Origin: an uncultured Chloroflexia bacterium
GTDB taxonomy: Bacteria; Chloroflexota; UBA6077; JACCZL01
Reading direction: 5' to 3'
Length of the DNA stretch: 64,000 nucleotides
Assembly (NCBI GenBank): GCA_963765765.1
Contig: CAVXYC010000032.1
Span: 1 to 64,000, forward strand
Shown: positions 47,318-51,084 of the stretch, one piece after another
Numbering within the stretch: position 1 is the stretch's first letter
Layout: the number at the start of each line of letters is the position of its first letter
Program-made: the position numbers and the translations under genes
Notes under the pieces: model-generated
The model's input: the letters and a program-made list of their open reading frames with translations, nothing else
Told to the model about the DNA's origin: nothing
Databases searched by the model: none

Positions 47318-48598
47318 ATGTTACCGGTCCAGGACAATGAGCTCATCACGCGTGTGAGTCCAGGCACCCCCATGGGTGACTTGATGCGACGTTACTGGCA
47401 GCCTATTGCCGCGTCGGCGGAGCTCGACGACAGCCCCTTCCGCACCAAGGAAGTCAAGATCATGGGCGAGGAGCTCGTCCTCTATAAGGACCGGAGCGGC
47501 ACCCTTGGACTCATTGAGCGATATTGCTCGCACCGCCGAGTGAACCTCGCTATCGGTGTGGTCGAAGATGACGGCATCCGTTGTCAGTACCACGGCTGGA
47601 AATTCAACGAGACAGGTAAATGCGTCGAGCAGCCTTTCGAGGACACGATGCATCCCGAGGCGGCATTCCGCTCCAAGTGCAATCTGTCCGGCTATCCGGT
47701 CAAAGAGCTGGCCGGTCTGGTCTGGGCCTACCTCGGTCCAACACCGGCACCTGAGCTACCCAACTGGGGGCCGCTGGTGTGGGGCGAGACGGTGCACGAT
47801 ATCTGCATCACCAATCTCCACTGCAACTGGCTCCAGTGCCAGGAGAATTCGCTGGATCCGGTCCACACCGAGTGGCTCCATGGCTACTTCGCTCGATACT
47901 TCACCGAGATCATGGAAGGCCAGGCGCCGACCTGGACCAATCGCAGCAAGCCCCACCAGAAGGTCGGGTTCGATGTGTTCGACTACGGCATCATCAAACG
48001 ACGTGTCTCGCTGGGTGATGGTCCGGACAACGACGACTGGAATATCGGTCACCCGATTCTTTTCCCGAACATTCTCCTGGTGGGCAGCCAGTATCAGGCC
48101 ACGATGCAGTTCCGTGTGCCCGTGGACGATGAGAACACGCTGCACATCTCGCTGTACACCTGGCGTGCCGCGCCCGGTATGACCGCGCCCGAGCAGCCGA
48201 ATGTGCCGTACCGCCACATCTCACTGCGAGATGACTCCGGTCAGTGGAACCTCAGGAACACCTTCAACCAGGACTACATGGCCTGGGAGACGCAAGGCAC
48301 TATCGCCAAGCGACACCTCGAGAAGCTGGGGGAGTCGGACCGCGGCATCATCCTGTTCCGTCAGCTCTTGAAGGATCAGATCCAGAAGATGCAAAACGGC
48401 GAGCCGCTCATGAACGAGTTCCGCGATCCCGCTCAGAATGTCTGCCTGGAGCCGCCGCTGGAGAAGATCAAGTTCAGCAACCGTGAAGGTCCCAGGAGCT
48501 ACATCCCGGGTGAAGTTGGTTACAGCCGCGACGGGAAGCTCATCGAAGAGGTTTTGAAGACCTGGAGCAGCCCGGCGAAGGAGCTCGTGACCGCTTAG
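47318..48598 (+). CDS. Rieske non-heme iron oxygenase alpha subunit (phthalate 4,5-dioxygenase/LigX-like)
   Basis: CSH...CQYH Rieske motif; ENSLDPVHTEWLH and QD iron ligands; EKLGESDRGII. Confidence 0.9.
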   Translation: MLPVQDNELITRVSPGTPMGDLMRRYWQPIAASAELDDSPFRTKEVKIMGEELVLYKDRSGTLGLIERYCSHRRVNLAIGVVEDDGIRCQYHGWKFNETGKCVEQPFEDTMHPEAAFRSKCNLSGYPVKELAGLVWAYLGPTPAPELPNWGPLVWGETVHDICITNLHCNWLQCQENSLDPVHTEWLHGYFARYFTEIMEGQAPTWTNRSKPHQKVGFDVFDYGIIKRRVSLGDGPDNDDWNIGHPILFPNILLVGSQYQATMQFRVPVDDENTLHISLYTWRAAPGMTAPEQPNVPYRHISLRDDSGQWNLRNTFNQDYMAWETQGTIAKRHLEKLGESDRGIILFRQLLKDQIQKMQNGEPLMNEFRDPAQNVCLEPPLEKIKFSNREGPRSYIPGEVGYSRDGKLIEEVLKTWSSPAKELVTA

Positions 48599-48649: not shown

Positions 48650-48713
48650 GAACCGCCCCAAGGGCCTTCCTGCAGGAGATTGAGTTCCTGCGGGAAGGCT
48701 CTTGGGGCGGTTC
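48650..48713. terminator. 28-bp stem-loop between convergent genes
   Basis: gaaccgccccaagggccttcctgcagga / tcctgcgggaaggctcttggggcggttc; both mismatches are G-U pairs on the + strand. Confidence 0.55.
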
Positions 48714-48850
48714 ATTGGAACGAGAGACTGGGACCGCCGACATCCTGTCGGCCCGGCCCCTGAGGGCCGCCTCGCAGGTTTCCGGGACGCGCACAGGGCC
48801 CAGGTCATCTCCCCTGGGCCTGAGTCATTGTTGCGTGGTGGCCGTTCTTA

Positions 48851-49270
48851 TCAGTCGCTGTCAGTAGTGATCTCGATGTTCACGGTGGTCGCGACCGCGA
48901 CCGCACGATAGAGCGGTCAAACGGATTGCCAGTGCTGAACGAGCGCCTCGGCTTGCACGGCATTCGGTCCGTCCATGCGGAAGCGCACGTCGATGCGCAG
49001 GAAATCCGCCGTGTTCTGAGCCGAGCGGACGCCGTCGATCTCCACCTCGACGTGCTGCAGGGGCACCTGCCGTTGGCGCGCCGCTCCGTTCACCACATTG
49101 ACACCGCAGGACGAGATGCCGGCCAGAAATGCTTCACCTGAGGTCACAGCCTCGGCCGGACCGCTGGAGGAATCGATGACGAAGTGATTCGCTCGGGCGC
49201 TATTGAGCGTCCGTCCTAACGTGTCTGTGTTGACAGATTGGACAGAGTCGACTTTCAGATCATCGGGCAT
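48851..49270 (-). CDS. OsmC/Ohr-family protein, probable selenoprotein (139 aa, Sec118)
   Basis: EAFLAGISSC55; in-frame TGA at 48917-48919 followed by PLYRAVAVATTVNIEITTDSD and TGA TAA. Confidence 0.8.
48887..48902 (-). promoter_or_regulatory. Candidate bacterial SECIS hairpin
   Basis: GGUCGC-GGUC-GCGACC; first loop G is 21 nt after the UGA. Confidence 0.6.
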
Positions 49271-49282
49271 GCGGATCGCCTC

Positions 49283-49732
49283 CTAGGGTGTATGGCGTCG
49301 GTCTTCGTCGCGACGCTCTTCTGTTTCGTCCGGGCGGTGGTAATCGTCCTCCAGACGGTAGGTCGTACCGACCTCAGGCGTGGACGCCTCGAAAATGACG
49401 GCGTCCGCATCCGGGGCGGCGCACAGCCGGTGACGTTGGCCAATGGCCACGGAGTAGCCCACATGCGGCTCCATCACCACGTCATGAAGCTTGCCATCGG
49501 GCCCTTCGAGCACTAGGATGCCTTTTCCATCGATAAGCGTCTGGGTCTCGGTTTTGGCATCGTGCAGCTGCAGGCTCAACCGATGTCCGGCCTTCACGTG
49601 AATCAACTTCGATGTGTACGGAGCGTCCTCCGGTGAGAGCAGCACCTCATGTCCCCATGGCTTCTCCACGCGACGTGCGCCGGGCAGAAGCGAGAACGCG
49701 GTCGGATCATAAGTAGGCGGCTGCTCTGGCAT
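49283..49732 (-). CDS. Cupin domain protein (mannose-6-phosphate isomerase C-terminal-like)
   Basis: EKPWGHE, RLSLQLHDAKTET, GQRHRL, EASTPE, RLEDDY. Confidence 0.85.
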   Translation of the reverse strand: MPEQPPTYDPTAFSLLPGARRVEKPWGHEVLLSPEDAPYTSKLIHVKAGHRLSLQLHDAKTETQTLIDGKGILVLEGPDGKLHDVVMEPHVGYSVAIGQRHRLCAAPDADAVIFEASTPEVGTTYRLEDDYHRPDETEERRDEDRRHTP

Positions 49733-49830: not shown

Positions 49831-51084
49831 TTAGCTCTTGATTTCCTCAGGCGGTCGGATCAATCGAAACGTGCGCCAGAGTGCGATGTCATACGCAATT
49901 TTGATCGCTCCACCAACCACGAATGTCAGCCCGATGAATGGGGATTGGAGAGCCAGGCCAGCGAGAGGGGGAGCAATGGACTGCGCGATATTTCGGCCTA
50001 CCGTGGTGAACCCAGCCGCGGCCGTTCGCTCTGACGGATCTACCACCGCCATGAGATACGACTGACGAGTGGGTACGTCCATCTGTGAAAGACCAGACCG
50101 AATGAGCTGCAGCAAGATAGCGATCTCTACGGAAGGAACCATTGCTTGAAGAATGACCAGAGCGTTGGCCGGAATGTGGCTCCAGACCATCGTGTTGATG
50201 AGACCAATGCGAGTGGCCAATCGCTCGGCGATAAGTAGAGACAGCGCCGAAAGCAAGTTCGATGCAGCGAACACCGGGCCAAGAGCGTCCACTCCAAGAC
50301 CGAAGCGCAGCGTGAACCAGTACGCCACGATGCTTTGAACAATGAAGCCACCGCCAAACGAGTCCATCCCAAAGAGCGCTGTTAGGCGGAAGACGATACG
50401 CCGCGACTGATGGATGCCAAGAGCGCTCTTGAGCGCCGGCGGTGAACCGAGCTCCACGGCTGGCGAAAGGCCGAATGCTATGACCAGCGCGGCGAGTGCC
50501 CCAACGGCGTAGACGCCAAATAGCCAGCGATGGGCAAGGAGAGGGTCCATGCCCAGTTGGCCAGTGAGCGCTGCAACGCCACCTGCGAACAGCGCCCCCA
50601 CGGAGCCAGAGGCGATGCCAACGAGGTTGTAGATCGTGAAGACTCGAGTTCGTCGGTTATCTGGCGCCATTTGAGACATGACAGCTTGCTCGAGTGTGAC
50701 AAAGGGGCCGACCTCCTGGATCCCGGCGCTGATGGTTCCGCTCAGGGAGGCGAGCACAAGTAGCCAGAACTGATCGCTCAGCGCATAGGCGGCGCCGGTA
50801 ATCATCATTAAAGCGCTGAAGATCACCAGTACTCGTCGACGGCCAAACCGATCGGCTGTGAGCGCGACCACAATCGTCAAGACACTGGAGCCGAGGAACG
50901 CGGCTCCCAGGAGAATGCCAAGCTCCACGCCGCCTAGACCCAGGTCCGCGACGTGCACGCCAAGGACCACCGAGACGATTCCGTAGCCGAAGCTACGGAA
51001 TGCCCGTGCGGCCAGCACGCGCCGCCCGTCCACGCCTAGCCAGCTGGGGCCTGGGAATCGCGTCGTGGTCGACATCTCACTCAC
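49831..51084 (-). CDS. MFS transporter
   Basis: ADRFGRRRVL, RSGLSQMDVPTRQSY. Confidence 0.9.
   Translation of the reverse strand: MSEMSTTTRFPGPSWLGVDGRRVLAARAFRSFGYGIVSVVLGVHVADLGLGGVELGILLGAAFLGSSVLTIVVALTADRFGRRRVLVIFSALMMITGAAYALSDQFWLLVLASLSGTISAGIQEVGPFVTLEQAVMSQMAPDNRRTRVFTIYNLVGIASGSVGALFAGGVAALTGQLGMDPLLAHRWLFGVYAVGALAALVIAFGLSPAVELGSPPALKSALGIHQSRRIVFRLTALFGMDSFGGGFIVQSIVAYWFTLRFGLGVDALGPVFAASNLLSALSLLIAERLATRIGLINTMVWSHIPANALVILQAMVPSVEIAILLQLIRSGLSQMDVPTRQSYLMAVVDPSERTAAAGFTTVGRNIAQSIAPPLAGLALQSPFIGLTFVVGGAIKIAYDIALWRTFRLIRPPEEIKS

Follow-up and report, generated by a model that had tools for sequence, protein, structure and literature searches.

An uncultured Chloroflexia bacterium carries an intact gene of 139 codons that very probably encodes a selenoprotein of the OsmC/Ohr fold, with the UGA at codon 118 decoded as selenocysteine (Sec). 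From the comparative sequence evidence set out below, we infer that selenium is inserted at residue 118, the position at which OsmC/Ohr proteins carry the second of their two redox cysteines. SelB and tRNA-Sec would decode this UGA, guided by a hairpin of the form GGUCGC-NGUN-GCGACC that lies within the coding sequence for VAVAT.

Gene Structure, Family Membership and Fold

All positions refer to the window, the whole 64,000-nucleotide stretch of DNA that was analysed, and the features of the gene and its surroundings are collected in table 1. The called ORF (48917..49270, minus strand) is 117 residues long, ends in ...QHWQSV and takes the TGA at 48917-48919 as its stop. A preliminary description of this DNA had pointed out that the frame stays open beyond that codon up to a double stop TGA TAA, and the sequence agrees: the in-frame continuation reads PLYRAVAVATTVNIEITTDSD and is followed by TGA (48851-48853) and TAA (48848-48850). 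Its placement of the Sec at residue 118, 63 residues after Cys55 (TGC 49106-49108), is likewise correct, as is that of a GGUCGC-GGUC-GCGACC hairpin (48887-48902) with its loop G 21 nt downstream, the distance being counted from the A of the UGA.

Table 1. Coordinates of the predicted selenoprotein gene, its elements and the gene upstream of it
Feature	Position in window	Strand	Remarks
Gene of the probable OsmC-fold selenoprotein	48851..49270	(-)	139 codons, ATG 49268-49270 to GAC 48854-48856
Terminal stop TGA of the OsmC-fold gene	48851-48853	(-)	Followed directly by TAA 48848-48850
UGA very probably read as selenocysteine, residue 118, motif V-U-P-L-Y	48917..48919	(-)	Column is TGA or Cys in relatives
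Candidate SECIS apical hairpin GGUCGC-GGUC-GCGACC	48887..48902	(-)	Inside the codons for (A)VAVAT
Cys55 codon TGC, first redox cysteine, motif GISSCGV	49106..49108	(-)	Aligns with Ohr first Cys 'SAC'
Shine-Dalgarno-like AGGAGG	49279..49284	(-)	8 nt 5' of the OsmC ATG; overlaps the cupin stop codon
Cupin-like gene, 149 aa, upstream of the OsmC gene	49283..49732	(-)	Weak PF01050 match

The Pfam OsmC model (PF02566) matches the 139-residue product with 52.5 bits (cut-off 27.5), residues 37-133 corresponding to model positions 1-100 of 100. Because this match runs across the TGA, the OsmC domain is complete only when the TGA is read through. An AlphaFold model of the same product, built with 20 family sequences as input, has a mean pLDDT of 87.8. 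Searched with Foldseek against the PDB, the model gave 39 matches at E up to 0.001, and all 33 of the matches listed (ranks 1-50) are OsmC-fold proteins, either named as OsmC/Ohr or unnamed structural-genomics entries. The Pfam score and the OsmC/Ohr fold of the model uphold the original assignment of the gene to the OsmC family.

In alignments made with phmmer and a family profile, Cys55 falls on the first redox Cys of Ohr (…SAC…) and residue 118 on the Cys of …VCPYS…, …RCPAH… or …KCPVH… in solved Ohr/OsmC chains. The claim that Sec occupies the second, CP-motif cysteine is thus supported by alignment with the Cys that is called resolving in Ohr. In Ohr/OsmC proteins the first Cys is peroxidatic and the second resolving, and the two redox residues adjoin in the active site of the solved structures; OsmC itself is a textbook homodimer. 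Conservation within the family is high at Cys55 (81/81 members), G19 (81/81), R20 (80/81), D33 (81/81) and E/D46 (81/81); HMMER left the N-terminus unaligned and placed E46 one position off the Ohr Glu, and R20 and E46 are no more than candidate counterparts of the catalytic Arg and Glu.

A check of the TGA in reads, which the preliminary description had proposed, came out only in part. Contigs from soil-metagenome run X1 extend over the TGA with no listed difference; they end 1-3 bases past it, so the codon is not properly bridged and the read-level check is weak. In the best DNA run of this check, 0.47 of the sampled words were present; run X2 left the OsmC gene uncovered.

The UGA Column across Relatives

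A six-frame search for the family covered 60 relatives and the source genome, 61 genomes in total, of which two (G006 and G048) contribute to counts only. The family was found in 24 of the 61. Outside the source genome there were 24 strong matches, 21 with one TGA inside the match and three without, and a further partial match in a genome of the same genus also has a TGA. Family members among the relatives searched thus comprise 22 of the TGA form and three of the Cys form, in addition to the source genome. When 20 loci were translated, one of them the window's own, the stop always fell at one and the same column, with TGA in 17 loci and Cys in three; the TGA loci read U-PLY (one U-LLF) and the Cys loci C-PLY.

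A wider scan, of one genome per GTDB species, yielded 249 relatives. The best 80 of these have TGA (77) or TGC (3) at the Sec column. By label, these 80 loci belong to Chloroflexota (35, including Thermomicrobiales, Limnocylindria, Dehalococcoidia and Chloroflexia), Rokubacteria/Methylomirabilota (19), Dormibacterota (10), Acidimicrobiia (3), Binatia (2) and ANGP1 (2), with one each from Acidoferrum, Planctomycetia, Verrucomicrobiia, 'Firmicutes' and 'Nitrosotalea' and four unclassified. Homologs had been expected to show either Cys or TGA at this column and conservation beyond it, and this is what both sets contain (17 + 3 of 20, and 77 + 3 of the best 80). The family member from the metagenome-assembled genome (MAG) labelled 'Nitrosotalea sp.', an archaeon (locus L041), closely resembles family members in MAGs of Methylomirabilota and Dormibacterota, and probably reflects a binning error instead of archaeal use of the family.

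The frame after the TGA stays open for 19-29 codons, most commonly 21. Positions +1 to +3 are Pro, Leu and Tyr in 75 of 75 distinct sequences, encoded by four, three and two synonymous codons, respectively (CCG/CCC/CCA/CCT, CTC/CTT/CTG and TAC/TAT). Synonymous changes make up 0.367 of the codon differences after the TGA when these are read in frame, whereas the two alternative frames give 0.169 and 0.073. This comparison indicates that the 19-29 codons past the TGA are under coding constraint.

If the TGA were a true stop, the gene would be either a nonsense pseudogene or the source of a 117-residue truncated OsmC-like protein such as those in public databases. Public protein calls of the homologs are indeed nearly all 117 residues long, cut at the Sec codon and named just 'OsmC family protein', translation table 11 has TGA as a standard stop, and a TGA also ends this gene at its 3' terminus. 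Against this, 94 loci from other species, spread over several phyla, retain this TGA, the frame past it is open and constrained as described above, the Cys forms are continuous through the column, and a 117-residue product would be missing the last helix and strand of the OsmC fold. Taken with these observations, termination at codon 118 is highly improbable and decoding as Sec remains by far the better reading of the gene.

The Hairpin Downstream of the UGA

The hairpin GGUCGC-GGUC-GCGACC starts 14 nt after the UGA. In the SECIS element of E. coli fdhF, the apical loop is GGUC, with an essential G23 and U24 as counted from the U of the UGA. We take the loop G and U of the OsmC-gene hairpin, at positions 25 and 26, to correspond to these two nucleotides.

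Pairing was evaluated for seven named pairs in an alignment of 83 Sec-form sequences, 82 of them distinct. The named pairs are formed in 98.6% of cells; shuffles average 93.4%, and none of 500 reached the observed value. With the partner shifted by 1-3 columns, 20-72% remain paired. All 82 distinct Sec-form sequences counted have a hairpin of this type after the TGA. Four stem pairs (31-44, 32-43, 34-41 and 35-40) are invariant and therefore uninformative for or against the hairpin, and another stem pair departs once, to a non-pair. Covariation is limited to two pairs, namely 33-42, with CG in 81 sequences and UA in one (a single CG-to-UA double change), and the loop-closing pair (GC 50, CG 18, AU 6, GU 1, other 7), which if formed leaves a loop of only 2 nt. 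Both covarying pairs lie at third positions of Val/Ala codons, which places the signal at the level of the RNA. Third positions that take part in pairing hardly vary (GTC in 74/75, GCG in 74/75 and ACC in 75/75), while nearby unpaired third positions vary freely. The loop reads N-G-U-N in 71 of 75 sequences; the remaining four read GC and encode AAAT. All six Cys forms lack the hairpin, encoding AVVKST, AVSKGT, VADAT, VEKAW, AVAKGA and the like in its place.

Folding of the isolated 21-nt hairpin gives -11.1 kcal/mol, moderately better than shuffled sequences (z = -2.16, 5 of 200 shuffles as good). Single-sequence folding of a 66-nt context is not significant (z = -0.95), a competing GACCGC/GCGGUC helix being preferred, and the weight of the SECIS claim consequently lies on the comparative data and not on folding energy. 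No Rfam family matched 48780-49000 at E up to 10. Searching the whole genome for this hairpin motif downstream of a TGA retrieved the OsmC gene alone, so there is no shared SECIS type of this kind within the genome. The hairpin had originally been called SECIS-like from a single sequence; by its pairing and covariation across 82 distinct sequences and its absence from the Cys forms, it behaves as a SECIS.

Selenocysteine Machinery in the Source Genome

The source genome (6.49 Mb in 33 contigs, 91.8% complete) encodes all four of the components for which the preliminary description had suggested a search. The selA gene lies at C14:161648-162733 (472.7 bits), with selB directly downstream on the same contig (312 bits, or 337 bits together with neighbouring same-frame matches). 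A single tRNA-SeC(tca) gene, the product of selC, was located by ARAGORN at C15:168062-168147. The selD gene (C21:109702-110619, 381.6 bits) has one in-frame TGA, in the context GAG-U-ACKLSP, which marks selD itself as a selenoprotein gene of the Sec type; the hairpin downstream of its TGA differs from that of the OsmC gene.

SelA is present in all 25 relatives with a family member (22 of the TGA form and three of the Cys form). As a test of the Sec reading, co-occurrence of SelA with the TGA form proved uninformative: SelA is found in 56 of the 61 relatives, including the three Cys-form genomes, and so does not discriminate.

Readthrough of the UGA without Sec, by near-cognate suppression (Trp, Cys or Arg) or under a reassigned code, would by itself explain the downstream constraint but has nothing specific in its favour, and it is rendered scarcely credible by the fact that 39 of 77 family genes, and this gene as well, terminate with TGA, from which it follows that the code is not reassigned, by a hairpin at fixed distance that is conserved at synonymous sites and missing from precisely the Cys forms, as expected of a requirement for SelB-dependent decoding, by the complete Sec machinery of the source genome and by the identity of the replaced residue, a redox Cys.

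Comparison with Known OsmC-Fold Proteins

Selenoproteins of the OsmC type have been described before, as the preliminary description had stated, but the published ones carry Sec at the first cysteine. The entries in the Sargasso Sea study of Zhang, Fomenko and Gladyshev (2005; PMC1088965) include an 'OsmC-like protein' selenoprotein (COG1765) with the motif UxxT, an entry repeated in the GOS paper (PMC2398784), a 2022 review (PMC9312934) and a 2026 review (PMC13188914). Table 1 of the 2026 review gives 119 selenoprotein families and subfamilies, in which a difference in Sec position is enough to define a separate subfamily, and its sole OsmC entry is PF02566 with UxxT (PMC13188914). The same review (PMC13188914) cites Deng et al. 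2026 (Cell Rep) for a Methylomirabilota MAG with 63 selenoproteins, a set that might include the present family. Among the main texts covered by our full-text literature search, none describes Sec at the second OsmC cysteine.

To place the UxxT type, we searched 401 genomes of the phylum with the NCBIfam model NF041052, 'OsmC-related (seleno)protein' (cut-off 95 bits), and obtained matches over the cut-off in 22. Eleven of 12 translated loci read …GF-U-LLT-Q… and one has Cys at that place, and all 12 have a later …G-C-F/Y/H-… cysteine, which puts the Sec of the published type at the first cysteine. The NF041052 type and the present family occur in one phylum, are similar in size and share the PF02566 domain, a pairing of one Sec with one Cys at the redox positions and a SECIS in the coding region. 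They are mirror images in the arrangement of these residues: the NF041052 type has Sec first (GF-U-LLT-Q) and Cys second (G-C-F/Y-TMQ), whereas the present family has Cys first (GISS-C-GV) and Sec second (U-PLY), with no UxxT at the first position. The 139-residue product scores 18.4 bits against NF041052, far below the cut-off of 95, and a search of the source genome with NF041052 gave nothing at E up to 1e-10. In genome G029 both types are present, on contigs C37 (L115, NF041052 type with Sec first) and C3 (L031, present family with Sec second).

Ohr (PDB 1n2f, 6mjn) has the same fold as the modelled product, with Cys55 corresponding to its first Cys and U118 to the Cys of VCPYS; the GR that the present family conserves close to its N-terminus, and its acidic residue ahead of the first Cys, resemble those of Ohr. 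Unlike Ohr, to which identity is 14-21%, the present family has Sec for the second Cys and an H29/D33 motif specific to itself. The Ohr subfamily models give 25.3 bits with the 139-residue product, well under their cut-offs of 88.85 (TIGR03561) and 240 (NF052637). OsmC proper and YhfA-like proteins (PDB 1qwi, 1lql, 1vla, 1ml8) also share the fold and are among the best structural matches, 1lql being the best Foldseek match of all (rank 1, TM 0.65). Their second Cys likewise sits in a C-P motif (RCPAH, KCPVH), but they lack Sec. No NCBIfam OsmC model matches the 139-residue product at E up to 0.01.

Proposed Mechanism

The product is most likely a thiol/selenol-dependent hydroperoxide reductase. 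We predict a cycle in which Cys55 would attack the peroxide, the Sec118 selenolate would quickly resolve the resulting Cys55 sulfenic acid to a selenenylsulfide, and a cellular dithiol reductant would then reduce the Cys55-Sec118 selenenylsulfide. We infer all three elements of this scheme, the peroxidase activity, the identity of the first attacker and the reductant.

Sequence conservation moderately favours Cys55 over Sec118 as the attacking residue: Cys55 itself is invariant, and the family also keeps a GR motif and an acidic residue reminiscent of the Arg and Glu with an activating role in Ohr. The roles may instead be swapped, with Sec118 attacking the peroxide as in glutathione peroxidase to form a selenenic acid that Cys55 resolves. 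Where Sec occurs in an enzyme, it usually stands in for the most reactive of the catalytic cysteines, the other OsmC-fold selenoprotein family (NF041052) has its Sec at the canonical peroxidatic position, and the adjoining of the two redox residues in Ohr/OsmC active sites speaks for such a swap as well. Set against these points are the presence of Cys55 in every family member, the near-invariance of G19-R20 and E/D46, which resemble and may correspond to the Arg/Glu environment of Ohr, and the Cys forms, which keep both cysteines at the canonical places. The swap is accordingly a possible but rather unlikely arrangement, and attack by Cys55 with resolution by Sec118 is the mechanism that we would propose for the family.

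Cupin Neighbour and Genomic Context

Upstream of the OsmC gene, on the same strand, a cupin ORF (49283-49732, minus strand) stops 12 nt before the OsmC ATG; it scores 23.4 bits against Pfam PF01050, just below the cut-off of 23.6. RNA contigs of two soil/rhizosphere metatranscriptome runs span the junction between the two genes (X15, 49079-49399; X16, 49232-49382), a weak hint that the cupin and OsmC genes are co-transcribed in this genus. At 95-99% identity, contigs of two soil/rhizosphere metatranscriptome runs match positions 49079-49612 of the window, which fall in the cupin gene and the OsmC gene's 5' part. Close relatives thus appear to be present in soil RNA libraries, carry-over of DNA being possible.

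According to the preliminary description, the cupin-OsmC(Sec) pair may be an undescribed redox module. The short same-strand gap with a Shine-Dalgarno-like sequence overlapping the cupin stop, the recurrence of the pair in a genome of the same genus (L035) and the RNA contigs across the junction agree with such a module, but a contig across two genes is not proof of one transcript, RNA libraries can contain DNA, and the arrangement is not conserved. Of the 76 loci that extend more than 500 nt upstream, the cupin adjoins the OsmC gene in one, that of L035. In a tblastn search of the 80 loci, the cupin, the MFS transporter and the Rieske protein of the window each had a match solely in L035, and clustering of 290 neighbouring ORFs from these loci gave a largest recurring family that is present in only 6-7 of the 80. 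With adjacency in 1 of 76 loci and no neighbour family in more than 7 of 80, we rejected a conserved cupin-OsmC module, and a dedicated two-gene pair is very improbable. The OsmC selenoprotein gene thus normally stands alone.

The flanking genes in the window encode a Rieske [2Fe-2S] oxygenase with LigXa/KshA-like C-terminal domains (47318-48598, plus strand) and an MFS transporter (49831-51084, minus strand). Between the convergent Rieske and OsmC genes lies a 28-nt inverted repeat (48650-48713, 93% complementary, 8-nt loop), which might act as a bidirectional terminator or represent a REP-like element.

Significance

The genes described here may represent an unlisted, widespread subfamily of soil and groundwater selenoproteins with Sec in place of the second cysteine; we hold this with middling confidence, together with its corollary that, as the sister subfamily NF041052 replaces the first cysteine, selenium was recruited independently at both positions of the OsmC redox pair. 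An OsmC-fold selenoprotein with Sec at the first cysteine is known, and it is Sec at the second that would be new. Since public calls stop at 117 residues, the whole family would be mis-annotated and selenoproteome sizes undercounted, which touches soil and groundwater Chloroflexota, Methylomirabilota, Dormibacterota and others. The location of the hairpin in the VAVAT codons, with both hairpin and VAVAT lost in the Cys forms, would make the family a clear case of an RNA element constraining protein sequence. Sec at the position of a resolving cysteine is unusual, and if our reading is correct, the two OsmC-fold selenoprotein types would provide a natural pair for asking what Sec adds to peroxide attack as against resolution and recycling in a thiol peroxidase.
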